64,000 bases of DNA from positions 28,339-92,338 of IMG/VR virus record IMGVR_UViG_3300045988_182914. One strand, 5' to 3'. The DNA comes from a virus. A model generated the notes under the pieces. That model saw only the letters and a program-made list of their open reading frames with translations, did no database searches and had not been told where the DNA came from. The translations under genes and the position numbers were made by a program. Positions 6,314 to 53,662 of the stretch are shown piece after piece (within the stretch, counting starts at the first letter, position 1; the number at the start of each line of letters is the position of its first letter).

Positions 6314-6554
6314 ACAAAAAACCGCTGGATTATCCTGGCGGTTTTTCTGCATTTCTTGGCACGTACAGTATCTGCATAAAAATGTACCCAAATTGGGCAG
6401 ATAAACAAAAAGAGTACCCGTAACGGATACTCTTTTTTGTTTATTTCTTTGTAAATTCATACGGCTTCATTCTGGCATAATTGCAGTACATACCGGGATT
6501 TTCCCGTTGACTGTATATGTCAGGAACTAACGTTACTTTTTTCATGGCAGTTTC

Positions 6555-6980
6555 CTATGCAATAAAGTCAAACTTTACACCGCCGACTTTGCATTTCTGA
6601 ACTTCTGGATTAAAATTTTCAATTACCAGAAATTCATCTATACGGCATAATCCTGTTTCAAGTTCCTTGTCATTGAATGACTCTAAAAAATCTTTACAGT
6701 TGCCATCATACACCTCGTCGTATTCATCAGTTAATGGCTCTTCACTGTCACCATATATAATAACATCTTCATTATCAAGAGTTTCTTGTTTTGGATTTTT
6801 AAGCTTTATTATACAGTCACCGTTTATATCATGCTGAAGATGTTCATATGTAACAAGTATATCTGATTTGGACATATGCACTGGAAAGTCAAAGAATAAA
6901 GAATTTAATTCTGTATCATATTTCTTATACTCTGACATTACATGCTCGTACAATTCTTGTGAAGTTTTTATCGATTCCAT
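6555..6980 (-). CDS. Hypothetical highly acidic protein
   Basis: 141 aa, rich in D and E. Confidence 0.5.
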   Translation of the reverse strand: MESIKTSQELYEHVMSEYKKYDTELNSLFFDFPVHMSKSDILVTYEHLQHDINGDCIIKLKNPKQETLDNEDVIIYGDSEEPLTDEYDEVYDGNCKDFLESFNDKELETGLCRIDEFLVIENFNPEVQKCKVGGVKFDFIA

Positions 6981-9219: not shown

Positions 9220-10186
9220 CTAATTGACTTTAATTCCAGTACATTCATAAAAAATGTCTGGATCAAAATTTGGAATACTTTTAATTATCTGTTTATCACA
9301 ATCAGATAACCCGTTCCACCACAACTGACCACATTTAGATTCATCAAGCACTTTGAGATAACCGCTTGTTGTTTCATAGGTTGGATATGCTGCTTTTTCT
9401 TCATCAGTCATATCTTCTTCAGATACCCATTCAACAACATTCTTTGGTATCTGATTCAGTAAATATTTTGCATCTGAATCCATCCATTCACGATATGTCA
9501 TATTTGATGGCTTATTAAACAGTATAATCTTCTGTTCTTCTGTGTTAAAACAACCAGTATTAAAAGACGATTTGTTCCAGTCCCCGGTGTTCCAGTCCCC
9601 GGTGTTGCAGTTTCCGGTGTTGCAGTTTCCAGTGTTCCTGTCCCCGGTGTTGTTGTTCCCAGTGTTCCAGTTTCCAGTGTTGCCGTTTTCAGTGTTGCAA
9701 ATTCCGGTGTTGCAGTCTCCGGTGTTCCAATTTCCGGTGTTGCAGTCTCCGGTGTTCCTGTTCCCAGTGTTCCTGTCCCCGGTGTTCCAGTTTCCGGTGT
9801 TGCTGTTTCCAGTGTTCCTGTTCCCGGTGTTATTATCCCCGGCGTTACAGAGACCCGTACATTTTTTTCCAATGTTGACAATCCGCAACACTTCATCCCA
9901 CGGGATTTCACGCACGATCTCTAACTTATTAGTGCATAACTCGTATCCGTCTGTCCTCACATCACCATAGGCAATGATTTCCGCTACCTTGTTTTTACTG
10001 TTGAAACTGTAATAGTTAAAACAGTCGGCAGCCGTCTGACAGAAGTGCATACCGTGATTGCAAATATCAAGCTCCCCTTCTTCCTCAAATTTTCCGGGGC
10101 AAGTGTACTGTTTCGTGTTGCCGTTAGGTGAACATGTCCAATCAGGTCTAAACACTTTAAATCCTTTTATTATCTCTTCGTTGTTC
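9220..10186 (-). CDS. Protein with about 30 tandem NTGxx pentad repeats (pentapeptide-repeat-like solenoid) between Cys-rich N- and C-terminal domains
   Basis: NTGNRNTGNSNTGNWNTGDRNTGN... is encoded by a 15-nt-periodic DNA repeat at 9570..9860. The likely true start is the MNNEEI ATG at 10186, downstream of GGAGGA. Confidence 0.7.
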
Positions 10187-10280
10187 ATTTGTTTTTCCTC
10201 CATTTTTCTTTATTTTTATATGGAAAGTATGATAGTTTTTACATTATTGGCACAAAAAAAAGAGGGAAAACCCTCTTTTT

Positions 10281-11417: not shown

Positions 11418-12557
11418 TTACTCTGTTGCAACTGTATCAGGTACTTGGCTATCAGAAAGATAGTTTATTCCCATACGATACAGATTCATAGCTCCGATAC
11501 GGTCATCATTGGACTGATAGCCACAGTTTTTACAAGTAAACAAATGTATTTTCTTGTTACGGTTAGACTTTTCCGTATGCCCACAAACAGGACAACATTG
11601 ACTCGTATAACGAGGATCTACCTTAATTACAGAAGATTGATTCTGCTTTGCCTTGTAAATTAGTTTCTGTTCTAAACCATAGAACGACCACGACACAGAA
11701 ACATAACGGTCTTTTGTTTTGACACGCTCTGTAGCATTGCGAATACCCGACAAATCTTCTAATACAAAGAGTGTATGCTTCGGGTTATTCTCAACGAGTG
11801 CCTTCGATACACAATGGTTCACATCTTGCATCCAACGGTTTTCTCGCTGACCGATAGCTTTTAATCTTCGCCTTGAAGATGGAGTTTGTCGCATTTGGAG
11901 TTTTTTGCGAAGTTTGGAATAGTTAGCACGTTTCTGCTTGATAGCTTTTCCACTAACAAATCCAGACTTGTGATGACTGTCATAGGTTGCAACAACGAAG
12001 TTAATTCCTCTGTCAATGCCTACGACATTACAAATGTCAGAAATATTACTTTCTTTGACATCATAAGTTACTGGTATGTGAAGATAATATTTACCATGTT
12101 TGTTTGTGAGCTTGGCTGTACCAAACTTGTAAATAGAATGGTCAAAATATTTAGACATACCTTCAGCGAAATATGGCAGTTTAACACGACCATTCAGCGT
12201 ATTCACAGAAAAACAGTTTTGCGTTAAAGAATAATCTCTGTTCCAAACTAAATCATACTGAGGTTTCTTGAAGGTTGGTCGTATCCATTTATTTTGATTT
12301 TCGAGAATAGCTCTATATCGTGCAATGACCGTTTTCAAAACGGACTGAGCCATTTGCGATTTCAAACCAAATTTTTCTCTTAGAGTAGAATACAAAACTT
12401 TATTCAGTGAAAACTGCTTTAAATCATGAGTCTTGAATACATAGTCTGAAACATAATCACAGGCATCACGATAAACAGACATAGTTTCATCAAGCAAAAC
12501 TTTATCTGCATCAGTAGCGACTATTTGAACTTTTGCTGTTATAGTCATCTGTTCCAT
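11418..12557 (-). CDS. tnpB: TnpB (IS605 OrfB, RuvC-like RNA-guided nuclease)
   Basis: 379 aa. RuvC motifs GIDRG, LEDL and NDDRIGAMNL, plus zinc finger CPVCG...CKNCG. Confidence 0.9.
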   Translation of the reverse strand: MEQMTITAKVQIVATDADKVLLDETMSVYRDACDYVSDYVFKTHDLKQFSLNKVLYSTLREKFGLKSQMAQSVLKTVIARYRAILENQNKWIRPTFKKPQYDLVWNRDYSLTQNCFSVNTLNGRVKLPYFAEGMSKYFDHSIYKFGTAKLTNKHGKYYLHIPVTYDVKESNISDICNVVGIDRGINFVVATYDSHHKSGFVSGKAIKQKRANYSKLRKKLQMRQTPSSRRRLKAIGQRENRWMQDVNHCVSKALVENNPKHTLFVLEDLSGIRNATERVKTKDRYVSVSWSFYGLEQKLIYKAKQNQSSVIKVDPRYTSQCCPVCGHTEKSNRNKKIHLFTCKNCGYQSNDDRIGAMNLYRMGINYLSDSQVPDTVATE

Positions 12558-12640
12558 AGATGTACTCCCTTCATTGATATCTCACTAGATATAGTATATA
12601 ATATTAGTTAGTGAAAGTCAATAATTATCAGAGGTAGGCT

Positions 12641-13045
12641 ATGGACAATAGATATAATCGTCATAACAGACGAAAATACAGTCTAAAAGTACATATAGTT
12701 CTTGTAACTAAATATCGTAAGAAACTACTAAAAGGTTCTATTGCTGACGATGTTAAGCAAAAGATTTTTGATATAGCCAATACTCGTGGCTACGAAATAA
12801 TCGCTATGGAAGCAGACAAAGACCACATGCATTTTTTAATAAGTTATGATACGACTGATAGGGTTTGCGATATTGTTAAGATTGTAAAACAAGAAACACC
12901 ATATTACCTATGGCAAAAGTATGGCTCGTTTCTGTCTAAACAGTATTGGAAGAAAAGGATATTTTGGTCAGACGGATACTTTGCTTGCAGTATTGGAGAA
13001 GTATCGTCAGCGACTATACAAAAGTATATTGAAAGTCAGGGTTAA
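12641..13045 (+). CDS. tnpA: IS200-type TnpA (Y1 HUH transposase)
   Basis: 134 aa. Matches the IS200 family across ...HIVLVTKYRKKLL...HMHFLISY... including the HUH motif. Confidence 0.9.
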   Translation: MDNRYNRHNRRKYSLKVHIVLVTKYRKKLLKGSIADDVKQKIFDIANTRGYEIIAMEADKDHMHFLISYDTTDRVCDIVKIVKQETPYYLWQKYGSFLSKQYWKKRIFWSDGYFACSIGEVSSATIQKYIESQG

Positions 13046-16741: not shown

Positions 16742-16966
16742 TTTCTTTACCTCCCAGATTTGAATTCCGATTAATGCTTACATATAAAGTATGATAGAAA
16801 CAAAAAAAATAACGGTTTTAATGAATTTACTGCGCAAAAAATCTCCTGACAACGTCAGGAGATGAATGCGCTGGATTTATATAGAAGCACATATCAGTAT
16901 GGATAAAAAATCATACTTATATCAGAAAGGCCAGCCTTATAAAACAAACCAGAGGAGGTGAATTCC

Positions 16967-18232
16967 ATGAGACAGATGAATCAGATGCCGTACATTATCG
17001 GCGCGGTAATACGCATATATCCTAGCAATAAACAGAAGCGCATTATCGCCAAAAATGACGGCGCCGCGCGTTTCATATATAACAGGCTTGTTGCCCGCGA
17101 CAGGGAGCTTCACGCCCTTGGAAGGGTCAAAAGATATTGTGAGCCTGTAGCTGCACGCATCTCATATCTTAAATCTCTTGGAACAAACCTCTCGGATTTG
17201 AAGGCTGTATATCCGTTCCTTGAGGATAAGGAAATTGATTCCCTTGCTGTCTGCAATGCAAAACAGAATTACCAGACCGCATGGAACAATTTCATGAAGG
17301 TCCCGGGCACGTCGATACCAACATTCCATAAAAAGGGATATTCAAAATCATACCAGACGAACTGCCAGTATCCTTCGGGATGCACCGACATCAAAAAGGG
17401 GAGTGTACACATGCTTGACCGTAAACATGTTCAGGTTCCAAAGCTGGGTTCTGTCAAGTTTAAGGATTCCGGCATGCTGCGGCGTATTTTTGCCAGAACA
17501 TCCGAAACACGCATAGGCTCAGTAAAAGTTGCAATGGATAACTGCGGCGACTACTGGATCTCCATGCAGGTCGGTTCGGTAGGTCCGCTCCACAATGCAA
17601 TGCCCGCAGTCGGACATGGTGTCGGAATAGATGTAAATGTCAAAAACCTTTACACGGACTCAGACGGAAATGAGGCTGAAAATCCAAAATTCTACACAAA
17701 AACAGAAAAGAAACTTGCCAAGGCACAGCGAAAGCTCTCAAGACGCATGGAGCGTGCCAAAAAAGACGGCAGGTCTTTATATGATGCAAAAAACTACCAG
17801 AAGCAGAGGCTTAAAACTGCAAAAATAAGCAGGTCAGTATCCCGCAGGCGCAAGGATTACCTTAATGTCCAGAGTAAGCGTTTAGTCGAAAGCCAAGACT
17901 TTATATTTACTGAGAACTTAAGCTCCAAAGCCATGATGAAAGATAATGACTATGCCAAATACATAGCTGATGTCGCATGGAGTAAATTCATCACAATGAT
18001 AAAATATAAATGCGGATTCTACGGCCGCATATTCGGCATGGTTCCGGCCAAAAACACCACGCAGATGTGTCATGTGTGCGGATTTATACTTACCGGTGAC
18101 AGTAAGCTCTCATTCAACGACCGTTCGTGGACATGTCCTAACTGCGGCACCTTCCATATGAGGGACCACAACTCTGCCATAAACATAAAAAACAGCGGAA
18201 CCCGGTTGTATTTACCAGATCCCGCTTTATAA
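16967..18232 (+). CDS. tnpB: TnpB (IS1341-type, no adjacent tnpA)
   Basis: RuvC-I GIDVNVKN, E in FTENLSS, RuvC-III RDHNSAINI, zinc finger CHVCG...CPNCG. GGAGG RBS before the ATG at 16967. Confidence 0.9.
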   Translation: MRQMNQMPYIIGAVIRIYPSNKQKRIIAKNDGAARFIYNRLVARDRELHALGRVKRYCEPVAARISYLKSLGTNLSDLKAVYPFLEDKEIDSLAVCNAKQNYQTAWNNFMKVPGTSIPTFHKKGYSKSYQTNCQYPSGCTDIKKGSVHMLDRKHVQVPKLGSVKFKDSGMLRRIFARTSETRIGSVKVAMDNCGDYWISMQVGSVGPLHNAMPAVGHGVGIDVNVKNLYTDSDGNEAENPKFYTKTEKKLAKAQRKLSRRMERAKKDGRSLYDAKNYQKQRLKTAKISRSVSRRRKDYLNVQSKRLVESQDFIFTENLSSKAMMKDNDYAKYIADVAWSKFITMIKYKCGFYGRIFGMVPAKNTTQMCHVCGFILTGDSKLSFNDRSWTCPNCGTFHMRDHNSAINIKNSGTRLYLPDPAL

Positions 18233-18425
18233 GACAATGAACACGCGTAGTTTGACAACTCACTACGTAACCGCTCCTTTACTGGTGTGCCACTGGCTGT
18301 CACTTCTGCGGAAGGACTTTCAAGCACGCTTTATCCGAGTAAGCTGTCTTCACAGACACGGATGTTTACACAAACTTCCGGTTTACAGACAGGTTTCCGA
18401 CAACGTCGGGAGTAGTTGACTTCTG
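18233..18425 (+). ncRNA. Putative omega RNA 3' of the solo tnpB
   Basis: Position only. Region contains stems such as ccggtttacagacaggtttccgacaacgtcgg. Not verified. Confidence 0.35.
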
Positions 18426-18502: not shown

Positions 18503-18662
18503 TATATGGAAAGCCATTTTTCAAAATCATTTCTGACATACTATATGTGTAAAACAGGAATACAGATAAGCCTGTTAACATACAACTCCATTTTTCTTTT
18601 TAGATATGAGTCGGGGACGAAAGCCTCCGGCTATACGTTTGTCCAAAATTCCAAAAACAAAG
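18503..18662 (+). repeat. Structured repeat element, copy 1 (also at 53518..53662 and split at 61729..61812 + 62391..62445)
   Basis: About 85-90% identity among copies. Contains a conserved hairpin with a GAAA loop that shows compensatory changes between copies. Confidence 0.75.
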
Positions 18663-18943
18663 GCCATATACCCACAAAAGAGCACATGACCTCTGCTGCT
18701 GAACAGCACGGCGCAGCCGCTTCGCGAAATGCTTTTGCGCCATGGATGCTTTATAGCTTTGCTGTCGTTCATGCACCATTAAGTGGCTGTGCACAGGCCG
18801 ACAGTAGACAGGCCAGCCAAAGCCTGCCCGGCATCAACGGGCATCCCTTTCGTTTCTGCTGCTGCCTCTTGGGCCCTTCGACCCGGGAAATTCATGCAGC
18901 ATTCATTTCCTTCATTAAGTATGATTTATTTTTTCGCAAAAAA

Positions 18944-18976
18944 GAAGCCGGGCGATCAGAACCCGGCTTCGAAAAG
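18944..18976 (-). terminator. Rho-independent terminator hairpin (aagccgggcgatcagaacccggctt + T-run on minus strand)
   Basis: Perfect 9 bp stem followed by cttttttgcg on the minus strand. Confidence 0.6.
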
Positions 18977-19417
18977 TTGAGGAAATAGCATGATGACATC
19001 CAAATAATGTCTTCCCTGCTTAATATAAGTATGATAGATTTTTCTACCAATTTTCAAGCTTTTGTATTTGAAAAACAGAAACCTAGACAGTATACACCAT
19101 CCCGGCTTCCGCTTTTCAAAGATTTTTTTTGGAGGAATCGCCTTGATTACATCTTTTTTAGATGTCTTCCGCGTTCACTATAAGTATGATAAATTTTTCT
19201 GCGTGATATGTGTTTCTATATAAGTTTTAAACTAATTTACAAAAATATAGCATTCTTTCATCCCACGGCTGAAGCGTATAGCTTTCAGAATGCTATATTA
19301 CTGTAAATATTTCCTTTCTTCCTTTTCCTATAGTATGATTTTTCTTTCTCCTGAAATAAGCGCAGATTTTAAAAATAAACAGCAAAAACTTATATAGAAA
19401 GCCATAACTCGGCATAA

Positions 19418-19448
19418 TTTCTAACATACTTATGATATACAGAGAGAA
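19418..19448 (+). promoter_or_regulatory. Forward-oriented copy of the conserved promoter/5'UTR element upstream of cas12a
   Basis: tctaacatacttatgatatac about 30 nt before the cas12a RBS. Confidence 0.55.
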
Positions 19449-19475: not shown

Positions 19476-22400
19476 ATGAATACAGGTTTTAACGATTTCA
19501 CGAATCTTTCATCTGTTACAAAAACATTATGCAACAGACTGATTCCAACAGAAATCACGGCAAAATATATAAAAGAACACGGCGTTATTGAAGCCGATCA
19601 GGAAAGAAACATGATGAGTCAGGAGCTTAAGAATATCTTAAACGACTTTTACAGAAGTTTCTTAAATGAGAACCTTGTAAAAGTTCATGAACTCGATTTT
19701 AAGCCGCTCTTTACAGAAATGAAAAAGTATCTGGAGACAAAGGATAATAAGGAAGCTCTTGAAAAGGCACAGGATGATATGAGAAAAGCCATTCATGATA
19801 TTTTTGAGAGTGATGACAGATACAAAAAGATGTTCAAAGCAGAAATTACTGCTTCCGTCCTGCCGGAGTTTATCCTGCACAACGGAGCCTACTCCGCTGA
19901 GGAAAAAGAGGAGAAAATGCAGGTTGTCAAGATGTTCAACGGCTTTATGACATCATTTTCAGCATTCTTTACGAACAGGGAAAACTGCTTTTCAAAGGAA
20001 AAGATTTCATCATCTGCATGCTACAGAATTGTTGATGACAATGCAAAAATTCATTTTGACAACATCCGCATATACAAAAACATTGCAAACAAATTTGATT
20101 ACGAGCCTGAAATGATTGAGAAGATTGAGGAAGCTGCTGGTGGAGCTGATATTAGGAATATCTTTTCGTACAACTTCAATCATTTTGCCTTCAATCATTT
20201 TGTGTCGCAGGATGATATTTCTTCCTACAACTATGTCGTAAGCGGGATCAACAAGTTTATGAACCTTTACTGTCAGGCTTCAAAGGAGAAGTTTAGCCCG
20301 TACAGGTTAAGACGTCTTCACAAGCAGATACTCTGCATTGAGGAGTCTTTATATGATGTACCTGCAAAGTTCAATTCCGACGAGGATGTATATGCTGCGG
20401 TTAATGATTTTCTTAACAACGTCAGAGCCAAGTCTGTTATTGAAAGACTGCAGATGCTCGGCAAGAATGCTGATAGCTATGACCTTGATAAGATATACAT
20501 TTCAAAGAAGCACTTTACAAATATATCCCAGACACTGTACAGGGATTTCAGTGTAATCAATACTGCTCTTACCATGAGTTACATTGACACTCTCCCGGGC
20601 AAAGGCAAGACCAAAGAGAAAAAGGCTGCATCCATGACTAAAAACACTGAATTAATAAGCCTTGGTGAAATTGATAAACTTGTTGATAAGTATAACTTAT
20701 GTCCGGACAAAGCTGCAAGCACAAGGTCGCTTATAAGAAGCATTTCAGATATTGTCGCTGATTACAAAGCAAATCCGTTAACTATGAATTCCGGCATTCC
20801 GCTCGCAGAAAATGAGACTGAAATCGCTGTTCTTAAGGAAGCAATTGAACCGTTTATGGACATCTTTCGCTGGTGTGCAAAGTTCAAGACAGATGAGCCT
20901 GTTGACAAGGATACGGATTTTTACACAGAACTTGAGGATATAAACGATGAGATCCATTCTATTGTATCCTTATACAACCGTACAAGAAATTACGTAACCA
21001 AGAAACCGTACAACACAGACAAGTTCGGATTGTATTTTGGCACGTCTTCATTTGCATCAGGTTGGAGTGAAAGCAAGGAATTCACCAACAATGCCATTCT
21101 TCTTGCAAAAGATGACAAATTTTATCTTGGAGTGTTCAATGCCAAAAACAAACCTGCAAAAAGTATTATCAAAGGACATGATACGATGCAGGACGGTGAT
21201 TACAAGAAAATGGTCTACTCTCTTTTAACCGGACCTAACAAGATGCTGCCTCACATGTTTATAAGCTCAAGCAAGGCTGTACCGGTTTACGGACTGACAG
21301 ATGAGCTGCTTTCTGATTACAAGAAAGGCAGACATCTTAAGACGTCAAAAAACTTTGACATAGACTACTGTCACAAACTGATTGATTACTTTAAGCACTG
21401 TCTCGCACTGTATACTGACTGGGACTGCTTTAATTTTAAGTTCTCAGATACCGAAAGTTACAATGACATTGGTGAGTTCTACAAGGAAGTTGCCGAACAG
21501 GGATATTACATGAACTGGACATACATTGGAAGCGATGATATTGACAGTCTGCAGGAAAATGGCCAGCTGTATCTGTTTCAGATATACAATAAAGACTTTT
21601 CAGAAAAGAGCTTCGGAAAACCAAGTAAGCACACTGCTATTCTACGCAGTTTATTCAGTGATGAAAATGTTGCAGATCCTGTTATCAAGTTATGCGGCGG
21701 CACAGAAGCATTCTTCAGGCCAAAGAGCATAAAAACTCCTGTCGTTCACAAGAAAGGTTCTGTTCTTGTCAGCAAGACCTACAACGCACAGGAAATGGAT
21801 GAAAATGGAAACATTATTACTGTCAGAAAATGCGTGCCTGATGATGTTTACATGGAGCTTTACGGCTACTACAACAATTCAGGAACACCTCTTTCAGCAG
21901 AGGCGCTTAAGTACAAGGATATTGTAGACCACCGCACTGCCCCTTATGACATTATAAAAGACCACAGATATACAGAGGATGAGTTCTTTATCAACATGCC
22001 GGTGTCACTAAACTACAAGGCGGAAAACAGACGTGTAAATGTAAACGAAATGGCTCTTAAGTATATTGCTCAGACAAAGGACACTTACATCATTGGAATT
22101 GACCGTGGGGAGAGAAATTTGCTGTATGTATCAGTAATTGATACTGACGGAAACATTGTTGAGCAGAAATCCCTTAACATCATTAACAATGTGGACTATC
22201 AGGCAAAGCTCAAGCAGGTTGAAATCATGAGAAAACTGGCAAGGCAGAACTGGAAACAGGGTGTAAAAATAGCTGACTTAAAGAAAGGCTATTTGTCACA
22301 GGCAGTTCATGAAGTTGCCGAGCTTGTAATAAAATACAATGGTATTGTTGTCATGGAAGACTTAAACAGCAGGTTTAAGGAAAAGCGTTCAAAGATTGAG

Positions 22401-23267
22401 CGCGGGGTTTACCAGCAGTTTGAGACAAGCCTCATTAAGACTCTCAACTATCTGACATTCAAGGACAGAAAACCTCTGGAAGCAGGCGGAATTGCCAATG
22501 GTTATCAGCTTACATACATTCCGGAAAGCCTTAAAAATGTCGGAAGCCAGTGTGGATGCATTCTCTATGTGCCAGCCGCATATACATCAAGGGTTGATCC
22601 GACAACAGGATTTGTATCCTTATTCAAGTTCAGAGACATATCGTCTGAAAAAGTCAAGACGGATTTCATTGGCAGATTTGACTGCATCAGATATGATGCC
22701 GAGAAAGATTTGTTTGCATTTGAGTTTGATTACGATAATTTTGAGACATACGAGACCTGTGCAAAAACAAAATGGCGTGCATACACTTACGGCACCAGAG
22801 TTAAAAAGACGTTTCGAAACAGAAAGTTCGTTAGCGAAGTCATTATCGACATAACAGAGGAAATCAAGAAAACTCTTACTACCACAGACATAAACTGGAC
22901 AGATGGTCATGACATCAAACAGGAAATTATTGACTATGCACTCTCCTCTCACATATTTGAGATGTTCAAACTCACAGTGCAGATGAGAAACAGCTTATGT
23001 GAGTCGAAAGACAGAGAATATGATAAGTTTGTGTCTCCGATATTAAACGCGTCAGGAAAGTTCTTTGACACGGACGCTGCTGACAAATCGCTTCCTATCG
23101 AAGCAGATGCTAATGACGCATATGGTATCGCAATGAAAGGCTTATACAATGTACTTCAGGTGAAGAACAATTGGACCGAGGGCGAGAAATTTAAGTTTAG
23201 CAGACTCAGCAATGAAGACTGGTTTAGTTTCATGCAAAACCGTGCAGAAAAGACAGTAAACAAATAG
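19476..23267 (+). CDS. cas12a: Cas12a (Cpf1), type V-A effector, apparently catalytically intact
   Basis: 1263 aa. N terminus FTNLSSVTKTLCNRLIP. RuvC-I IGIDRGERNLLYVSVID, RuvC-II VVMEDLN, RuvC-III ADANDAYGIAMKG, Nuc QMRNS...SPILNASGKFFDTD. Confidence 0.97.
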   Translation: MNTGFNDFTNLSSVTKTLCNRLIPTEITAKYIKEHGVIEADQERNMMSQELKNILNDFYRSFLNENLVKVHELDFKPLFTEMKKYLETKDNKEALEKAQDDMRKAIHDIFESDDRYKKMFKAEITASVLPEFILHNGAYSAEEKEEKMQVVKMFNGFMTSFSAFFTNRENCFSKEKISSSACYRIVDDNAKIHFDNIRIYKNIANKFDYEPEMIEKIEEAAGGADIRNIFSYNFNHFAFNHFVSQDDISSYNYVVSGINKFMNLYCQASKEKFSPYRLRRLHKQILCIEESLYDVPAKFNSDEDVYAAVNDFLNNVRAKSVIERLQMLGKNADSYDLDKIYISKKHFTNISQTLYRDFSVINTALTMSYIDTLPGKGKTKEKKAASMTKNTELISLGEIDKLVDKYNLCPDKAASTRSLIRSISDIVADYKANPLTMNSGIPLAENETEIAVLKEAIEPFMDIFRWCAKFKTDEPVDKDTDFYTELEDINDEIHSIVSLYNRTRNYVTKKPYNTDKFGLYFGTSSFASGWSESKEFTNNAILLAKDDKFYLGVFNAKNKPAKSIIKGHDTMQDGDYKKMVYSLLTGPNKMLPHMFISSSKAVPVYGLTDELLSDYKKGRHLKTSKNFDIDYCHKLIDYFKHCLALYTDWDCFNFKFSDTESYNDIGEFYKEVAEQGYYMNWTYIGSDDIDSLQENGQLYLFQIYNKDFSEKSFGKPSKHTAILRSLFSDENVADPVIKLCGGTEAFFRPKSIKTPVVHKKGSVLVSKTYNAQEMDENGNIITVRKCVPDDVYMELYGYYNNSGTPLSAEALKYKDIVDHRTAPYDIIKDHRYTEDEFFINMPVSLNYKAENRRVNVNEMALKYIAQTKDTYIIGIDRGERNLLYVSVIDTDGNIVEQKSLNIINNVDYQAKLKQVEIMRKLARQNWKQGVKIADLKKGYLSQAVHEVAELVIKYNGIVVMEDLNSRFKEKRSKIERGVYQQFETSLIKTLNYLTFKDRKPLEAGGIANGYQLTYIPESLKNVGSQCGCILYVPAAYTSRVDPTTGFVSLFKFRDISSEKVKTDFIGRFDCIRYDAEKDLFAFEFDYDNFETYETCAKTKWRAYTYGTRVKKTFRNRKFVSEVIIDITEEIKKTLTTTDINWTDGHDIKQEIIDYALSSHIFEMFKLTVQMRNSLCESKDREYDKFVSPILNASGKFFDTDAADKSLPIEADANDAYGIAMKGLYNVLQVKNNWTEGEKFKFSRLSNEDWFSFMQNRAEKTVNK

Positions 23268-23398
23268 CTAGTGCAGACCGCAACTTGAATAAAAGGAAAT
23301 GCTTACAGTTCAATGGTACAAGGTAACAAATTAAGGACATAATGCATAAAAAGCTTACAGTTCAACCGTAAAATGTTGTGCAAGTGCACAATGTTAGG

Positions 23399-24095
23399 GT
23401 TGATACTGTGAGCGAAATGTCTACTAAGGTAGATTTCATCTATGTACTCGATTGCATACTTTGTTGATACTGTGAGCGAAATGTCTACTAAGGTAGATCA
23501 TGCGTTAACACACATATCAATTACGGTTGAAACTGTAAGCGGAATGTCTACTGGGGTAGATCTGCAATGGGTGAAAAAACATCCTCTAGTCGAAACTGTA
23601 AGCGAAATGTCTACTAGGGTAGATGATAGTCAAGATGATATCACAGTCATTGTTGAAACTGTAAGCGGAATATCTACTAGGGTAGATACAAAAAATATCT
23701 TTAATTTCTTCATCAGGTTGAAACTGTAAGCGGAATGTCTACTAGGGTAGATATATACTCTATAAGCTTATCTGATCCACGTTGAAACTGTAAGCGGAAT
23801 ATCTACTAGGGTAGATTTGATGATGCCACTATGGTTGAAAATGTTGAAACTGTAAGCGGAATGTCTACTTGGGTAGATACTATGATAATCATATGGACAC
23901 TGTGAGTTGAAACTATAAAGGAAATGTCTACTGAGGTAGATTTTCTCTTATTTTTTTAATTTGAATAAAGCTGAAACTGTAGGCAAAATGTCTACTGATG
24001 TAGATTATTCCCAGCATACCAAATAAAATATTTACTGATATAGATATATAGATAACTCAATTGAAGCTGTTAGCGAAATATCTATTAAAACAGAT
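23399..24095 (+). CRISPR. CRISPR array 1 (type V-A repeats, about 10 good plus 2 degenerate repeats, 26-29 nt spacers), leader at about 23340..23398
   Basis: 36 nt repeats ending AATGTCTAC-NNNN-GTAGAT (the Cas12a 3' handle hairpin). The array degenerates toward its 3' end. Confidence 0.95.
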
Positions 24096-24171
24096 CAGAT
24101 CAACAGTATAAGATGATGATAAAAAGCCTACAGCTCAGCCGTGAAATGTTGTACAAGTGCGTAATGTTAGG

Positions 24172-24986
24172 ATTGATACTGTGAGCAGAATGTCTACTAA
24201 GGTAGATCCTTTGACCATCTATTCTTCATGTTTGGTTGATACTGTAAGCGGAATGTCTACTTGTGCAGATGAGTTGCAGACGAATGGTTCTTTGCGTGTT
24301 GAAGCTGTAAGGAAAATGTCTACTGGTGTAGATATCATTTTGAATATCTTCCTTTCCTATGTTAAAACTGTAAGCGGAATGTCTACTGAAGTAGATCCTC
24401 TACCTTTTATCATTCGTTTTAATGTTGAAACTGTAACTATCCTTATCGGTCTGTAAATTCAATGTTGAAACTGTAAAGAAAATGTCTACTAGGGTAGATT
24501 GTACATCACTTGTAAAAGATGTAGGTTGAAACTGTAAGCAGAATGTCTACTAAGGTAGATATGAAATATTGTCCAGTGCTGTCTTCATTGGAACTGTTGG
24601 CGAAATGTCTACTAAGGTAGATCAGCTGAATTAATGGTTCCGTATTATCGCTGAGATTGTAAAGTGAAATGTCTACTGGTGTAGATTGATTATTACATCT
24701 CATAACCGTTCTGGTTGGGACTGTGAGCCAAATGTCTACTGGTGTAGATTATGTAGATGAGCAAAGAAACTCTCAGAAGGGCAGCGTTGATACTGTGAGC
24801 GGAATGTCTACTGGTGTAGATTCATTTTTTCATACGCATAATCAGAAAAGGTGAGTTGTGAGCAAAATGTCTACTGAGGTAGATTTCACAGAGAGTATGA
24901 TTTTTATTTGTTGAAACTGTAAAGAAAATGTCTACTGAGGTAGACGTGTAGATCACGGGTAGCAATATTTACTTGAAACTGTAAGG
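24172..24986 (+). CRISPR. CRISPR array 2 (about 13 repeats, one internally truncated at 24424..24437, last one truncated), own leader copy at 24121..24171
   Basis: Same repeat family. Leader about 85% identical to the array 1 leader. Confidence 0.9.
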
Positions 24987-24999
24987 AGGTAAATAAGGT

Positions 25000-25734
25000 A
25001 TGAATAAACTTAAAAACATGAATAAGAAAAAATCGTTTTGGAGTACATTAGTTAATGAATTCCTTGGAACTATTTTAATAACTTCTATTATAATTTATAT
25101 GATTGTGTTTATATTATTAGGAAGAGCTGGAATATTTAATTTTATGGGAGGTAGCAGTGATATAATAAACGGATTAGTTGCAGCAGCAGCCTTCCCAATT
25201 GTATTGGTCCTTGCATTATGTACAATAGTATTAATTATAAATATAGTAGCGTTTATTCCGCTTACTATACATAAAATTAAGGCCGTATATAATTACACCT
25301 ATCTTCCGCTTACCGCGGACGAGATTAAATATGCTTTGGATAAAAATATTATATCTTCTAAAGAAGATTATATTAAATTAATTTTGGATAATCTGCGTTA
25401 TGGAGTTACTAATAAACCATCTTTGTTTGAGTTTTTCTTTTCCACATGTTACATAACGTTCTCTCAAGAAGAGTTATATTCATTATGCAAAGCTTTTGAG
25501 AAAGTGTTTGATAGTCCGATTATAATTGATGATGATATGCTTTCATATCTTAATAAGTATGATACCAATTGTTCTCCTTTTGATGTAGCAAAATATAAAG
25601 ATGAAGTTTCGCTTACAACTATAAGGGAAGAATATGAAAATGGGAAAGATGCTACATTTGCGTTATACACGGATGGAGATAAATATAAAGAAATATTAGA
25701 AACAGTTGATTTCCCATTATATGTGGGCAAATAA
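25000..25734 (+). CDS. Hypothetical membrane protein (2 TM helices plus soluble domain) embedded between CRISPR arrays 2 and 3
   Basis: 244 aa, AT-rich. Its RBS aaggagg begins within the truncated terminal repeat of array 2. Confidence 0.6.
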   Translation: MNKLKNMNKKKSFWSTLVNEFLGTILITSIIIYMIVFILLGRAGIFNFMGGSSDIINGLVAAAAFPIVLVLALCTIVLIINIVAFIPLTIHKIKAVYNYTYLPLTADEIKYALDKNIISSKEDYIKLILDNLRYGVTNKPSLFEFFFSTCYITFSQEELYSLCKAFEKVFDSPIIIDDDMLSYLNKYDTNCSPFDVAKYKDEVSLTTIREEYENGKDATFALYTDGDKYKEILETVDFPLYVGK

Positions 25735-25865
25735 TTTCATTTTTCAAAAAACAGGTCCTATCCGTAATTAATACTGTAGAGAAAAATATTTTTTGAAGTA
25801 GAACGCAATATATAAAAAACATTACAGTTAAACCGTGAAACATTGTGCAGGTGCACAATGTTAGG

Positions 25866-26956
25866 GTTAAAACTGTAAGGGAAACGTCTACTGATGTAAA
25901 TGAAACCAAAGCTCCAGACTTAATGCATGTTAAAGTTGCGAACAGAATGTCTACTGGTGTAGATGAGTTGCAGACGAATGGTTCTTTGCATGTTGAAGCT
26001 GTAATAGAAATGTCTACCTAGGCAGATGCAGTCCCTGGAGATGTGAAGAAAGCGGTTAAATCCGTGAATAAAATGTCTACTGGTGTAGATAGTATTGTTG
26101 TTTTAATCATTTAGAGTTGAACCTGTAAGGAAAATGTCTACTGAGGTAGATATCATTGGGAATATCCCCTCCTTCTTTCGTTGAAACTGTAAAGAAAATG
26201 TTTACTGATGTAGATACCAGAAGTTTTATTATTGATTTAAATGTTGATACTGTGAGCGGAATGTCTACTGGTGTAGATTCATTTTTTCATACGCATGATT
26301 AGAAAAGTTGAGTTGTGAGCAAAATGTCTACTAAGGTAGATTCTGATAGTTTATATAGCGCAAGTGCGGTTGAAACTGTAAAGAAAACGTCTACTAGGGT
26401 AGATATGAAATATTGTCCAGCGCTGTCTTCATTGGAACTGTTGGCGAAATGTCTACTGGGGTAGATGCAATGAGTTTCTCCGGTAATTCATTCCAGATTA
26501 AAATTGCTAAAAAATGTCTACTTGTGTAGATTCATAGAGAGTGTGTTTTTATTTCTGGCTGAAGCTGTGAGCGAAATATCTACTGGGGTAGATGCCTGTC
26601 TCGTTAATCATGTTGGCTATAGTTGAAGCTGTAAATCAAAATGTAGATGAAAAACACTCAGAGAAAATCCGGAAAGATTGAGACTCTAAAAATATCTGCG
26701 AGTGCAGATTTCAGAACCGCAAGAACCGCCAAACAAAACTGTGGCCGAAATGTCTACTGGTGTAGATACAAAAGTCGCGGGGGTTCCCAAGGAGTTAAGG
26801 TTGTAAGCGAAATGTCTACTGAGGTAGATTTAATCTAGAATCAGATATTGAAAAACATTGAAGTCGCAGGTGAAATGTCTACTAGCGTAGATTTAATGAC
26901 AGATATGCATGTTGAAACTGTGAGCGGAATGTCTACTGAAACATACTAATGTAGAT
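25866..26956 (+). CRISPR. CRISPR array 3 (about 18 repeats, many degenerate), third leader copy at 25812..25865
   Basis: Same repeat family. Shares at least 3 spacers in the same order with array 2. Terminal repeat has a 10 nt insertion in the handle loop. Confidence 0.9.
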
Positions 26957-38274: not shown

Positions 38275-38283
38275 GAAACACAT

Positions 38284-38356
38284 GTATCATTAGCTCAGCT
38301 GGCAGAGCACTCGACTTTTAATCGAGCTGTCCGGGGTTCAAGTCCCCGATGGTACA
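38284..38356 (+). tRNA. tRNA-Lys (anticodon TTT)
   Basis: Manual cloverleaf fold. Acceptor GTATCAT/ATGGTAC, anticodon loop CTTTTAA, T-arm CGGGG-TTCAAGT-CCCCG. Confidence 0.8.
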
Positions 38357-38377
38357 TTACCGGCGGGTATAACATGA

Positions 38378-38458
38378 GGATAGGTATGCAAGTGGTTAAA
38401 TCGGGCAGACTGTAAATCTGTTGCTTCGGCTTCGTTGGTTCGAATCCAACCCTATCCA
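38378..38458 (+). tRNA. tRNA-Tyr (anticodon GTA), long variable arm
   Basis: Acceptor GGATAGG/CCTATCC, anticodon loop CTGTAAA, T-arm GTTGG-TTCGAAT-CCAAC. Confidence 0.8.
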
Positions 38459-38559
38459 CTAAGAAATTTCTTTTATTCAAGTCCTGCCCCGCCGACTTAA
38501 TTTTAAAACAAAGGAGATGATTTATAAATGATTGCAGACTTTAAAACTAATTTCATCAG

Positions 38560-38631
38560 GCTCTCGTAGCTCAGAGGTAGAGTACTTGGTTGAAGCCCAA
38601 GGGGTCGAAAGCTCAAAACTTTCCGGGAGCA
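38560..38631 (+). tRNA. Atypical tRNA-like gene, possibly tRNA-Phe (GAA), with non-canonical T-loop CTCAAAA
   Basis: Acceptor GCTCTCG/CGGGAGC (one G-U), anticodon loop TTGAAGC. The T-loop lacks the TTC motif, so it could be a pseudo-tRNA. Confidence 0.4.
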
Positions 38632-38635
38632 TTAT

Positions 38636-38719
38636 GGAGTGTTGGCTCAATTGGTACAGCAACTGTCTTGAAAACAGTCATTCCGAAAGGATATCTGAGT
38701 TCGAATCTCAGGCACTCCG
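38636..38719 (+). tRNA. tRNA-Ser (anticodon TGA), class II
   Basis: Anticodon arm ACTGT-CTTGAAA-ACAGT, long variable arm, T-arm CTGAG-TTCGAAT-CTCAG. Confidence 0.8.
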
Positions 38720-38748
38720 CTATATTAAAAAAACAATTTATATATTAT

Positions 38749-38834
38749 GCAGTGTTGGCAGAGTAGGTAATGCGCCGGATTGCTAATCCGAGGTCATCTT
38801 AACGGATGCAGGGGTTCGAGTCCCTTACGCTGCG
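38749..38834 (+). tRNA. tRNA-Ser (anticodon GCT), class II
   Basis: Anticodon loop TTGCTAA, long variable arm, T-loop TTCGAGT, acceptor GCAGTGT/ACGCTGC. Confidence 0.7.
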
Positions 38835-38898
38835 CTGTGTTAGTAGCTTAGGAGGTTTAATATCGTCAAATCCCGTCTAGCACCTTATATCTTATAAT

Positions 38899-38970
38899 GA
38901 TGATGTAGCCAAGAGGAAAAGGCATTAGTCTGCAAAACTAATATCGTGGGTTCAAATCCCATCATCATCT
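38899..38970 (+). tRNA. tRNA-Cys (anticodon GCA)
   Basis: Acceptor GATGATG/CATCATC, anticodon arm TTAGT-CTGCAAA-ACTAA, T-arm GTGGG-TTCAAAT-CCCAT. Confidence 0.75.
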
Positions 38971-39004
38971 CTCGAATATAATTCTCTTATTTACCACACT
39001 ATAT

Positions 39005-39983: not shown

Positions 39984-40733
39984 TTATATTTCGCAAATGC
40001 CGGGCTCGTACTTTGCAACCGGATTCAGCTTAAATTCATTGGCCAGATGTTTCTGCTTAATCACCTCGTCAATTTCTTTATCTTCGCAGGTCTCATTGCG
40101 AATAAAGGTATCCAGCTGCTCATACGTAAATCCAAAATTGTCTTCATCTGTCTTTCCACATAAACCGTCTGACGGTGTTTTGTCAACATACTTAGACGGC
40201 AGGCCAAGACAATGTCCAATGGCACAGACTTCAGACTTTGTCAAATATCCTAAAGGAGCCACATCCCCATCACCATCGCCGCCTATCGTAAAATAGCCGA
40301 CATAATCTTCAGAATAATTACATGTGTTAATCATTCTGCCATTATTACACTGACAGACTGCTCTTATCATCTTTGTACGTTCTCTTGGCGCAATATTCTG
40401 CCTGCACTGCTTCGTAATCTCGATTCCACAGTCCTGCAGCTGCTTGAAACTGGCCTCAAGTGCTGATCTTATGTTAATAGTATAGTTTCTGATACCCAAG
40501 AGCCTGCATACTTCAATAGAATCATTAATGTCTGACTGTTCTCCATCCGGCAGCATTACGCCGATGACCCTGTCTGCTCCGAGGGCCTTTACGCACAATG
40601 CCGCTGCTATTGTACTGTCCTTGCCGCCTGAAATGCCCAGTACGGCATTACAGCCTTTCCCATTTTCATCAAACCAGTCCTTAATCCATTTGATAAGATT
40701 TTCTGTCTGCTGTGCTGCATTGAAATTATACAT
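39984..40733 (-). CDS. nadE: NH3-dependent NAD+ synthetase NadE
   Basis: 249 aa. PP-loop GISGGKDS. Overall similarity to the NadE family. Confidence 0.88.
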   Translation of the reverse strand: MYNFNAAQQTENLIKWIKDWFDENGKGCNAVLGISGGKDSTIAAALCVKALGADRVIGVMLPDGEQSDINDSIEVCRLLGIRNYTINIRSALEASFKQLQDCGIEITKQCRQNIAPRERTKMIRAVCQCNNGRMINTCNYSEDYVGYFTIGGDGDGDVAPLGYLTKSEVCAIGHCLGLPSKYVDKTPSDGLCGKTDEDNFGFTYEQLDTFIRNETCEDKEIDEVIKQKHLANEFKLNPVAKYEPGICEI

Positions 40734-40734
40734 A

Positions 40735-41952
40735 CTATTTTTCCTCCTTAATCCTCCAGTCTATACATCTCTGAAGATAATCCACGTAATCCGGGTTTTT
40801 GCACATGCCTTTGCCTGGTGTGTCAGAAATCTTGGCTACGTCCATTCCGTTGCATCTTGTAGTTTTCATGACAATGTTGAGTGCAGGAACATCTGTATCA
40901 TTGCTTAAGTATGTGCCGATACCAAAAGCTACATTTGTTTCCTTGCAGAAATGTCTGTAGAGCTTGTCAGCACGCTCAAAGTCAAGACTGTCGCTGAATA
41001 AAAGTGTCTTTGTTTTAGGGTCAATTCCAAGGCTCCTGTAATGAGCAATCATCTTTTCACCCCACTCATACGGGTCTCCGCTGTCATGACGCACTCCTGA
41101 GAAAAGTGTCGCATAGGTAAGCTGGAAATCACGCAGGAAACAGTCTGTTGTGATTGTGTCAGTAAGCGCAATACCGTTTAATACTCCATACTCCTTAATC
41201 CATGCATCAAGAGCATACCAGTTTGAATATGCCGGATTGTGTTTGTGATTGCCCTGTCCTGTACACATAATCCACTCATGAGCCATAGTGCCTACAGGTG
41301 TAAGCCCATACTTCTTTGCAAGATACACATTTGATGTGCCGACAAACTTTGATGAACTGTGCAGGGTGTCGTTTAAATGTGCGAACTTCTGCACTGCAAG
41401 TTCCTGTGCTTCAGCAGAAAGTCTTCTTCTGAGACCAAACTCTGAGAATGTACCTGCGTACCAGTGTCCGTTCTTTAAATTCTCATACTTCGCATCCAGA
41501 CGCTTCTTAAAGCTGTCAAGCAGCTTATCATAGTCATATGTCATTCTGAAATACACTTCATTTACAATGGCAAGTGTCGGAATCTCATACATTGATGTGT
41601 TAAGCCATGTTCCTTTTGCCTCGATAGACAAGCCGCAAGGTGCATCTGTTCCTATCTCAAAATCCTCAAAACGTGGCTGCCAGAGACGAAGAAAATCAAC
41701 GTAAGAGCCTTTAATCCACTTGATATTGTCTAAATATGCAAGTTCATCTTCCGCAAACCGAAGCTTGCAGAATGCCTTAATCTGTTCTGTTATCTCCTGT
41801 ACCATTTCCGGTGTAAAATGCACATCCGTATTTCTGCACTTGAATGTCCATGTGGTCTTGTAATCCGTAAACTGATGGAATATTGTCTGACCCATCGAAA
41901 ATTTATACATGTCTGTCTCTAAAAGACTTGTGATTATCTGGTTTAATTTCAT
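40735..41952 (-). CDS. pncB: Nicotinate phosphoribosyltransferase PncB (E. coli-type, about 400 aa)
   Basis: 405 aa. SLLETDMYKFSMGQ, FVGTSNVYLAKKYGLTPVGTMAHEW, GVRHDSGDPYEWGEKMIAHYRSLGIDPKTKTLLFSDSLD and ISDTPGKGMC align closely with E. coli PncB. Confidence 0.92.
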   Translation of the reverse strand: MKLNQIITSLLETDMYKFSMGQTIFHQFTDYKTTWTFKCRNTDVHFTPEMVQEITEQIKAFCKLRFAEDELAYLDNIKWIKGSYVDFLRLWQPRFEDFEIGTDAPCGLSIEAKGTWLNTSMYEIPTLAIVNEVYFRMTYDYDKLLDSFKKRLDAKYENLKNGHWYAGTFSEFGLRRRLSAEAQELAVQKFAHLNDTLHSSSKFVGTSNVYLAKKYGLTPVGTMAHEWIMCTGQGNHKHNPAYSNWYALDAWIKEYGVLNGIALTDTITTDCFLRDFQLTYATLFSGVRHDSGDPYEWGEKMIAHYRSLGIDPKTKTLLFSDSLDFERADKLYRHFCKETNVAFGIGTYLSNDTDVPALNIVMKTTRCNGMDVAKISDTPGKGMCKNPDYVDYLQRCIDWRIKEEK

Positions 41953-42013
41953 GTATTCTCCTCCTTATTCTTACGTTATCAGTATGTCAGAAACCTTTTT
42001 GATAAATGGCTTT

Positions 42014-42556
42014 CTATATAATATTTACCTGAATCATCTTCATTGCTTCTATTGCTGTCTTATGACTTTCAGGCGTTACGCAGGCACAGGCATTTTCTAT
42101 CACGAACACCTCTGCATCTTTACAGAACGTCTTTGCAATCGCTACGTTGCTGATTACACATATTCCTGTGCAGAATCCGCAGAAATAAATCTCTGTATCG
42201 CTGTTGTCATATCCCGCAAGCAGTTCGCCAAGCTCTTTGCTGCCAAACGTCGGCTTGTCAATATAAGTAATATCGTCACAATTAACTCCACGCTCCTTCA
42301 TTGCATCTTTAAGACGAGCGTCTACTTCCCATCCGTTTGTCCCTTTAATACAGTGCACTACCGGAAGTTTCTTTCCTTCCTGAGTATTCAGATAGTTTTC
42401 ATCATGCGTATCCCTTGTGAATATCACGTCATCATATTTTCCTGACCTGATTTCATCTGCAATAACATTTGTCGCCACGTTACACTCCTTGTTTCCAAGA
42501 ACTCCTGTAATAAAATCATTCTGCGCATCCACTACTACTAAAATTTTCTTTGCCAT
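42014..42556 (-). CDS. pncA: Isochorismatase-family hydrolase, most likely nicotinamidase PncA
   Basis: 180 aa. VVVDAQNDF (Asp), conserved Lys in YIDKPTFG, Cys in FCGFCTGICV. Assignment as nicotinamidase is supported by operon context. Confidence 0.75.
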   Translation of the reverse strand: MAKKILVVVDAQNDFITGVLGNKECNVATNVIADEIRSGKYDDVIFTRDTHDENYLNTQEGKKLPVVHCIKGTNGWEVDARLKDAMKERGVNCDDITYIDKPTFGSKELGELLAGYDNSDTEIYFCGFCTGICVISNVAIAKTFCKDAEVFVIENACACVTPESHKTAIEAMKMIQVNII

Positions 42557-42568
42557 AATTATTTCCTC

Positions 42569-53517: not shown

Positions 53518-53662
53518 TATATGGAAGGCCATTTCTCAAAATCATTTCTGACATACTATATGTGTAAGACAGAGGAAATCTGTTAATACACAACTCCAAT
53601 TTTCTTTTTAAATATGGGCCGGGCGCGAAAGTGTCCGGCCATACGTGTGTCCAAAAACGCAA
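53518..53662 (+). repeat. Structured repeat element, copy 2
   Basis: See copy 1. Hairpin GGCCGG-GCGC-GAAA-GTGT-CCGGCC at about 53608..53633. Confidence 0.75.

Follow-up and report, generated by a model that had tools for sequence, protein, structure and literature searches.

How can a CRISPR system take up new spacers when no acquisition genes lie beside it? The question is raised by a cas12a gene and three CRISPR arrays in a 64,000-nt stretch of DNA (the whole of which is called the window; positions 28,339 to 92,338 of the IMG/VR virus record IMGVR_UViG_3300045988_182914). The answer put forward here, and thought probable, is that the locus is a functional type V-A interference module without adaptation genes of its own, that it lies in variable cargo of a ~315-kb element, widespread in human guts and most likely a conjugative megaplasmid of Lachnospiraceae whose probable host is Agathobacter rectalis or a close relative, and that it is adapted in trans.

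The Cas12a effector and its arrays

The cas12a gene (19476-23267, plus strand) encodes a type V-A effector of 1263 amino acids (aa), without an internal stop codon. All five Cas12a Pfam domains (REC1, REC2, PI, RuvC_1 and NUC) score well above their curated cut-offs, and the protein matches solved Cas12a structures with E values of 1e-169 to 1e-228, the top match being a reconstructed ancestral Cas12a, followed by LbCas12a, FnCas12a and AsCas12a. Alignment to FnCas12a, verified on the translation, finds the whole RuvC triad (D876, E961 and D1211), and residue-level alignment finds the Nuc arginine (R1171); these align with D917, E1006, D1255 and R1218 of FnCas12a. The WED-domain residues that cleave the precursor CRISPR RNA (pre-crRNA), H758, K767 and K828, are likewise kept in the alignment. 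An initial annotation of the window had called the RuvC and Nuc motifs complete, and the five domains and the residue alignments agree with it; the closer alignment revealed no inactivating mutation. As a single large effector with a split RuvC and a Nuc domain, the protein belongs to type V-A on its domains and catalytic residues.

Five alleles of the same clade, at 92-99% protein identity, also lack internal stops, and their ratios of non-synonymous to synonymous substitution (dN/dS) against the window allele, 0.05-0.11 for relatives at 92-96% identity, indicate strong purifying selection on cas12a. Outside the clade, identity to the nearest relatives falls to 51-52%, and a large cluster at 52% identity carries the annotation Agathobacter rectalis (chromosomal); no close relative was found in IMG/VR or among GTDB species representatives. 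In strain L140 (4021-5613 and 7971-11446), homology to cas12a starts only at window position 22075 and then jumps to the LigA region, so that the strain has either lost the 5' part of cas12a while keeping the arrays or been assembled as a chimera.

The first array begins 131 nt past the cas12a stop codon. The arrays together hold 37 good repeats of 36 nt on the cas12a strand, with spacers of about 27 nt (mostly 25-29 nt). A scan for the handle GTCTACTnnnGTAGAT that allowed up to three mismatches found 34 copies where chance would give 0.14; all of them lie on the plus strand, from 23419 to 26892, and there is no reverse-strand copy anywhere in the window. The type V-A pattern, a UCUAC-loop-GUAGAU handle ending a repeat of about 36 nt on the cas12a strand, is thus present, and handle scan and array parsing both bear out the three arrays that had been placed directly after cas12a. 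Array 1 (23399-24095, plus strand) has 10 good repeats and then two degenerate terminal ones; its repeats 1 and 2 are identical, and its spacer 1 (23435-23462) is the one with an identified target. Array 2 (24172-24990, parsed to 24945, plus strand) has 12 repeats and one truncated repeat (near 24424), and ends in the degenerate 5' half of a repeat (24973-24990) that is the source of an AAGGAGG ribosome-binding site for the next open reading frame (ORF). Array 3 (25866-26956, plus strand) counts about 16 repeats; it is decayed over the stretch 26594-26731, the loop of its terminal repeat (26911-26956) is expanded, and its content differs in relative L001. Arrays 2 and 3 have diverged repeat-spacer units in common, their order partly shuffled, which points to segmental duplication between arrays. 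Short ORFs overlapping the arrays come from the translation of array sequence and are artefacts.

The repeats are strikingly unequal, with 34 distinct 36-mers among the 37. Pairwise identity averages 0.65 over the 5' 17 nt and 0.88 over the 3' 19 nt. Position by position, the handle is 92-100% conserved, compared with 59-92% for the 5' half and 54-59% for the loop; all five stem pairs of the handle are intact in 34 of the 37. Chromosomal V-A arrays that have adaptation genes, or had them recently, are uniform instead (44 of 44, 7 of 7 and 13 of 14 repeats identical, the odd one being terminal with one change). Judged from the repeats, the variation is what would be left by selection for processing and loading by Cas12a once the homogenising effect of frequent acquisition is taken away.

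Handles of the Cas12a type also occur singly elsewhere. Contig JAFZRZ010000071.1 (280,209 bp, from a buffalo-rumen 'Lachnospiraceae' metagenome-assembled genome; loci L040, L042, L050, L056, L059, L060 and L093) carries at least 20 solitary handles, (A)AATGTCTACTATTGTAGAT, dispersed on one strand at irregular spacing and mostly directly 3' of AT-rich TATA-like sequence. They look like stand-alone promoter-handle-guide units and not like an array. The contig was considered as a relative of the window and rejected, being unrelated by tblastx.

Adaptation genes and probable spacer acquisition

Pfam scans of about 47 window ORFs gave no match to Cas1, Cas2 or Cas4, and six-frame tblastn of the 64-kb window with the Cas4, Cas1 and Cas2 of L003, the closest complete V-A locus, gave a best E value of 0.28. 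The absence of these genes from the window, claimed at the outset, is upheld by both searches. The wider claim, absence from the whole element, holds for the window, for about 20 kb of flanks (10 kb on each side, by precomputed Pfam annotation) and for 416 kb (redundant) of element and relative DNA, in which tblastn found none of the three proteins at E <= 0.01 and recovered its positive controls at E 1e-46 to 0, but this coverage stops short of the whole ~315 kb. None of the cas12a contexts fetched from independent assemblies contains adaptation genes. The locus differs in this from a typical V-A locus, where an adjacent cas4-cas1-cas2 is usual, though not required for the effector family, and from L003, an A. 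rectalis-type chromosomal V-A locus in which it is present.

Some integrase nevertheless appears to act on the arrays. Ahead of each array stands its own copy of a homologous leader, about 50 nt long, with which leaders from relatives can also be aligned. Leader 1 (23268-23398, with a conserved core at about 23349-23398) contains the motif TTGTGCAAGTGCACA at 23376-23390, which is -23 to -9 from the first repeat; leaders 2 (24096-24171, motif at 24149-24163) and 3 (25790-25865, motif at 25843-25857), also on the plus strand, are paralogues of it. The form TTGTGCAAnnnCACA stands at exactly -23 to -9 in all leaders of the element. L003 and L147, chromosomal V-A loci of the A. rectalis type, have it at this offset too, and the unrelated V-A arrays compared lack it. 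The repeats of the element and of these two loci also have the GTT(G/A)A start and the handle in common.

At the leader end, the first two to three repeats are perfect copies of each other, and strains with identical or near-identical Cas12a differ at the leader end of array 1 by whole units. The order is leader-R1-sp2 in L004 and L005; leader-R1-sp1-R1-sp2 in the window, L009 and L141; leader-R1-NEW-R1-sp1-R1-sp2 in L011-L014; and leader-R1-NEW-R1-sp2 in L010. Each time, the duplicate of R1 is perfect. A second array context repeats the pattern, L140 having one leader-end unit more than L139 and its first repeat again a perfect duplicate; L139 holds sp1 twice. The clade's fetched arrays contain 118 distinct spacers, and lineages at 92-96% Cas12a identity share only a few old ones. 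Identical leader-proximal repeats above old, diverged ones read, in sequence terms, as the footprint of polarised integration of the Cas1-Cas2 type at the leader-repeat junction. The initial suggestion that the system uses host adaptation machinery gains support from these perfect leader-end duplicates together with the leader motif common to host-type V-A loci, and the shared motif is consistent with a host V-A integrase recognising the leaders of the element.

The relative L002, at 92% identity, has a 21-nt spacer (12129-12149) whose reverse complement is exactly the sequence of positions 7-27 in spacer 2 of the window (23505-23525), so that a single protospacer seems to have been stored in opposite orientations.

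The candidate donors are themselves variable. L147 encodes, downstream of cas12a (6473-6745), a 90-aa in-frame fusion of the first 9 residues of Cas4 to Cas2, the product of a deletion of cas4 and cas1, and it keeps a 14-repeat array, 13 repeats being identical and the terminal one carrying one change.

Carrier, regulation and spacer target

An identical Cas12a is encoded on a 315,257-bp ENA scaffold consistent with the window, and proteins of the window (LigA, NadE, PncB, flotillin, the TnpBs and others) recur across many samples on contigs whose longest members cluster at 296-328 kb. These lengths point to a complete replicon of about 315 kb, one often met in metagenomes of the human gut. 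The GC content of the window is 38.8%, and its genes encode a VirD4-like protein, RadC, a DUF5688 protein, two BspA-type leucine-rich-repeat proteins, a 1308-aa VWA/TSP3 protein, an NAD-dependent ligase and many ORFs without known relatives. Megablast of the locus found no match in PLSDB and, among GenBank phages, only the syntenic fragment MT835946.

A further 83-kb contig from the dataset of this fragment, MT835474, contains 12 copies of a 46-nt motif characteristic of the element (see below) and encodes a VirB4 ATPase of the CD1110 family, a 913-aa coupling protein and a 1386-aa NlpC/P60 protein. A PHROG assignment of 'terminase large subunit' on this contig was rejected, the protein being a VirB4-like conjugation ATPase. 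MT835474 does not overlap the window, even after extension by 10 kb on each side. A conjugative megaplasmid is on these genes the better reading of the carrier than a phage, and A. rectalis or a close relative within the Lachnospiraceae is the probable host. That the system lies on a large mobile element, as first annotated, is confirmed by the recurring ~315-kb contigs, the VirD4-like protein and the motif-sharing contig with type IV secretion genes, although neither circularity nor replication genes were seen. The ~315-kb family of human gut Lachnospiraceae elements, with its own promoter-like motif, has apparently not been described before; the literature searched held no papers on this element or on plasmid-borne, adaptation-less Cas12a.

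The 46-nt motif has the consensus T[AG]GAAAGCCAT-N-AATCTnnCATACT, followed by a TATAAT-like hexamer. It occurs at 17 sites in the window (15 on re-scan) and at none in 20 shuffles, in most cases on the same strand as a gene whose start codon follows 25-45 nt downstream. Syntenic relatives have it too, as do the flanks of the window (15 hits in 84 kb, redundant), but none occurs in 616 kb of other DNA, of which 561 kb are unrelated genomes and 55 kb are A. rectalis-type chromosome. The copy before cas12a (TAGAAAGCCAT...CATACTTATGATATAC, 19395-19440, plus strand) lies 36 nt from the ATG, has a -10-like TATGAT at 19431-19436 and, with a position weight matrix score of 44-46, is among the best in the window; it would act as the promoter of cas12a. 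A sigma-70 scan also picks 19409-19436, although the generic scan, with no enrichment and no clear leader promoter, is uninformative here. The array leaders contain no motif site. The earlier statement that the system carries the element-specific motif therefore stands for cas12a but not for the arrays.

What the guides may act on is indicated by spacer 1. A metagenome scan with this spacer recovered ten stretches, five of them arrays of the element and five of them copies of one foreign locus, 99% identical to one another and unrelated to the window; the array and target contigs of this one scan came from different assemblies. The foreign locus matches the spacer at 28 of 28 positions and, in all five gut contigs, the match is preceded by 5'-TTTG. 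This is consistent with the 5'-TTTV protospacer-adjacent motif (PAM) of Cas12a, one spacer being no PAM profile. The genes flanking the target locus encode exact A. rectalis chromosomal proteins, such as ACR74923.1, which is found on contigs of up to 3.46 Mb, and the target is chromosomal for that reason. The genes adjoining the protospacer are much rarer and accessory, encoding a DUF262/GmrSD_N protein, a PDDEXK_9 protein, a helix-turn-helix protein and a 385-aa A. rectalis hypothetical protein. Gene content thus marks the target of spacer 1 as an accessory region of A. rectalis chromosomes and not a recognisable phage or plasmid. The target contig had been suspected to be a phage from PHROG hits, a candidate set aside on the exact-protein matches to A. 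rectalis chromosomes and negligible similarity to known phages.

Other searches for targets were negative. Seven spacers of the clade have no match in IMG/VR, the whole array region gave only chance-level matches to GenBank phages and PLSDB (blastn, E up to 10; best E 0.03), and no spacer targets the window itself or related loci. The spacer and PAM search that had been proposed has thus yielded one perfect protospacer with TTTG, but nothing credible from phages, PLSDB or IMG/VR. The idea that the system targets competing elements gains partial support from this PAM-flanked match, but the target is a chromosomal accessory region.

The surroundings of cas12a are those of a variable cargo region. 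Upstream lies an IS1341-type (TnpB-only) insertion of 1,606 bp (16817-18422, plus strand), which is context and not part of the CRISPR system. Its tnpB (16958-18232) encodes HTH_OrfB, OrfB_IS605 and TNB domains, the unit contains no tnpA, and subterminal hairpins are visible at both ends. The unit is found at other positions in relatives L015 and L144 and is therefore an independent mobile insertion; relatives with the same cas12a clade have other genes in its place. The annotation of the upstream neighbour as an IS1341-type tnpB was correct in light of its domains, the missing tnpA and this mobility. Other strains have different cargo in the stretch at about 19140-19310, amounting to 2.5-4.6 kb and comprising either YopX and HNH genes or genes of the helicase, FRG and SEC-C kinds, and in more distant lineages an HD-domain gene precedes cas12a. 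Since the upstream content differs among strains, cas12a and its arrays are placed in a variable cargo region. L015 was for a time taken to be a relative without cas12a and has been withdrawn as such; its tail matches the upstream region of the L004 type and the contig simply ends.

Between arrays 2 and 3 lies an ORF of 244 aa (25000-25734, plus strand) whose hydropathy profile predicts two to three transmembrane helices followed by a soluble part at the C terminus. It matches no Pfam family, is conserved on hundreds of element contigs and is absent from the array region of locus L008; its membership of the CRISPR system is uncertain.

Several other features of the window may be recorded here. 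Near-identical copies of the promoter-like motif at 18507-18552, 53522-53567 and 61732-61777 (plus strand) are each followed by a common, hairpin-containing leader of about 55 nt, and two of the three also share a further GAAA-loop hairpin (downstream stretches of about 60-130 nt each were considered). A 160-aa ORF at 18506-18988 starts inside the first of these copies and is probably not a real gene, and a strong bidirectional terminator hairpin at 18944-18970 ends the region of this copy. Between the tnpB unit and cas12a, minus-strand copies at 19018-19063 and 19173-19218 are each followed by a short hairpin (GGAAGACAT...ATGTC), and may be promoters of small RNAs that run antisense to the 18.5-19.0 kb region. 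At 11418-13045 lies another IS200/IS605 element, this one complete, with a minus-strand tnpB (11418-12557) and a plus-strand Y1 tnpA (12641-13045). It is absent from the syntenic strain L143, and its TnpB belongs to a cluster of more than 20,000 members, one of them from Catenibacterium. A tandem repeat of 15/30/60 nt at 9573-9850 lies inside a pentapeptide-repeat/DUF7666 gene (9220-10203) and belongs to the repeat structure of the coding sequence; it is no regulatory array. Six tRNA genes (Lys, Tyr, Phe, Ser, Ser and Cys; 38283-38971), the only Rfam matches in the window at the gathering threshold, stand beside a complete NAD+ salvage set (39984-44023) of NadE, PncB (a nicotinate phosphoribosyltransferase, NAPRTase), a PncA-like isochorismatase and a Nudix-NrtR-NMNAT fusion.

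Probable trans-adaptation, its alternatives and its relation to known systems

In the preferred reading, cas12a would be transcribed from the element's own promoter-like motif, and the arrays from their leaders or by read-through from cas12a. Cas12a, having the necessary residues, would cut the pre-crRNA at the conserved 3' handle AAUGUCUACU-NNN-GUAGAU and cleave spacer-matching DNA beside a 5'-TTTV PAM, of which one TTTG has been observed. New spacers would enter at the leader-repeat junction through Cas4-Cas1-Cas2 supplied in trans, the likeliest supplier being the chromosomal V-A adaptation module of some A. rectalis-type hosts, with its same junction-proximal leader motif. Old repeat-spacer units are proposed to persist because acquisition is rare, and while persisting they would drift outside the handle stem and be shuffled and duplicated among the three arrays. 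The guides would act on DNA met in the hosts; cleavage of the A. rectalis accessory cluster would exclude, or select against, the strains or islands that carry it.

Several points weigh against this account. About a third or more of the 315-kb element is unseen and could hold a cas4-cas1-cas2 operon, and absence from the entire replicon is for this reason unproven. L147, itself an A. rectalis-type locus, has lost cas4 and cas1, so that some hosts would be unable to provide adaptation. Deletion between identical repeats can also leave strains with or without a given leader-end spacer, and arrays are exchanged between lineages, the array of L005 being 100% identical over 219 nt and its cas12a only 92.5%; neither the direction nor the timing of single gains and losses can therefore be settled. 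A target is identified for one spacer of the 118, the assignment of the host is indirect, and MT835474 is tied to the replicon of the window only through the shared motif and the shared dataset.

The unseen part of the replicon, together with leader-end duplications that suggest some integrase at work, is what would favour a split but complete V-A system, adapted in cis by the element's own cas4-cas1-cas2 (or another Cas1-Cas2 pair) outside the window. This is improbable, given the empty search of 416 kb with its strong controls, the independent cas12a contexts without adaptation genes and the heterogeneity of the repeats, which points to infrequent and not to resident adaptation. Decay provides another explanation for that heterogeneity: the arrays would be degenerating after loss of adaptation, with interference gone, as the 34 differing repeats, the truncated and expanded ones, the decayed stretch in array 3, the possible loss of the 5' part of cas12a in L140 and the loss of cas4 and cas1 from the related chromosomal locus L147 might be taken to imply. 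A relic of this kind is very improbable, since it would hardly retain low dN/dS in five stop-free alleles, every catalytic residue, a handle stem spared by the variation, perfect duplicates at the leader end and a spacer still matching 28 of 28 positions beside a correct PAM. Scarcely better are the prospects for arrays that serve mainly as decoys (RNA anti-CRISPRs), or as extra guides for a host Cas12a in place of the element's own. Mobile elements do encode repeat-derived RNA inhibitors (PMC11656645), and the handle of the element is one base off the A. rectalis-type handle (AAUGUCUACU against AAUUUCUACU), which makes cross-loading into a host Cas12a plausible. However, the element keeps a full-length cas12a of its own under strong purifying selection, and its spacers are of normal length, one with a PAM-flanked target, none of which decoys need.

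The nature of the carrier bears on what the system is for, because a huge phage would use it during infection against its host or against competing phages. Syntenic fragments are held in GenBank, unverified, as 'Bacteriophage sp.' from human faeces, and the scaffold name resembles those of a huge-phage collection. The six-tRNA cluster, the NAD+ salvage set, HNH, YopX and Phage_ProQ_C_like genes and long runs of small, relative-less ORFs, in the window or its relatives, are in keeping with such a phage. On the other hand, the pieces scanned, though not in every ORF, yielded no gene for a capsid, portal or terminase, and the sole 'terminase' hit is the VirB4-like ATPase that stands with coupling-protein and NlpC/P60 genes on the motif-sharing contig. 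Neither cas12a nor the seven clade spacers were found in IMG/VR, and the same huge-phage collection contains conjugative megaplasmids (PMC12934698). A huge phage is accordingly judged unlikely, though less so than the alternatives above. Similarly unlikely is a bolder form of the trans-adaptation account, in which a megaplasmid re-arms a stripped-down Cas12a by hijacking the host V-A Cas4-Cas1-Cas2 through a mimicked leader, and aims it at accessory or defence islands of the host chromosome; the identified target cluster adjoins a GmrSD-like restriction gene.

Adaptation in trans by a megaplasmid-borne module, the reading preferred here, can be set against known systems. Canonical chromosomal V-A loci (those of the A. 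rectalis type, L003 and L147, and those of Lachnospiraceae and Francisella) have the same effector domain architecture and catalytic residues as the window, no anti-repeat or trans-activating RNA (tracrRNA), a 36-nt repeat with a 3' stem-loop handle and a 5'-TTTV PAM, and L003 and L147 also have TTGTGCAAnnnCACA at the same leader offset. The window system differs from them in lacking an adjoining cas4, cas1 and cas2, in having three arrays, each with its own copy of the leader, in the near-uniqueness of its repeats where chromosomal repeats are uniform, and in a Cas12a only 51-52% identical to the nearest chromosomal ones and carried on a ~315-kb mobile element. CRISPR-Cas systems without an adaptation module are established on jumbo phages and large plasmids (PMC11656645), and the window system is thus a further example and not a new phenomenon. 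Like them it consists of effector and arrays only, on an element of more than 200 kb, with a presumed dependence on host adaptation and a presumed role in conflict between elements or between element and host. It is set apart from these systems by its subtype, V-A, with a full-size Cas12a and intact catalytic residues, by its traces of trans-adaptation (identical leader-end repeats and a host-type leader motif) and by its chromosomal target.

The closest parallel for the carrier is the 'Hodor' group of conjugative megaplasmids of the human gut, which have a GC content of 44.6-47.1%, an average size of 357 kb and a type I-C system (preprint, PMC12934698). Both are associated with Bacillota in the human gut, exceed 300 kb, contain TnpB insertion sequences and encode VirB4 and VirD4; the Hodor plasmids resemble the window element further in a CRISPR-Cas with a degraded-looking array and in their recovery from 'huge phage' collections. 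GC content (38.8%), size (~315 kb) and CRISPR type (V-A) separate the window element from them. In the type I-F system of Vibrio phage ICP1 (PMC11656645), as in the window, a mobile-element CRISPR has a spacer that matches an accessory island of a host-type chromosome. ICP1 is in contrast a lytic phage with its own adaptation module, whose function against the PLE island is proven by experiment, while the window offers one spacer match. Should the hijacking version hold, the megaplasmid would be a plasmid counterpart of this ICP1-against-PLE counter-defence, and the free drift of its repeats outside the Cas12a handle would be explained.

What raises the locus above the routine are its sequence-level traces of trans-adaptation, its natural series of repeat variants and a very common, apparently undescribed carrier. 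Its Cas12a is a further, diverged orthologue that shares 52% identity with the enzyme of A. rectalis. Having diverged naturally, the 37 repeats serve as a mutational scan of the demands that Cas12a makes on its repeat: the stem is preserved, and the variation falls in the loop and the 5' half. This series is useful for the design of multiplexed Cas12a arrays. The locus is also a concrete, testable case of probable class 2 trans-adaptation on a very common mobile element of the gut, one that comes with a defined leader motif, a first repeat, candidate donor machinery, and one target with its PAM.

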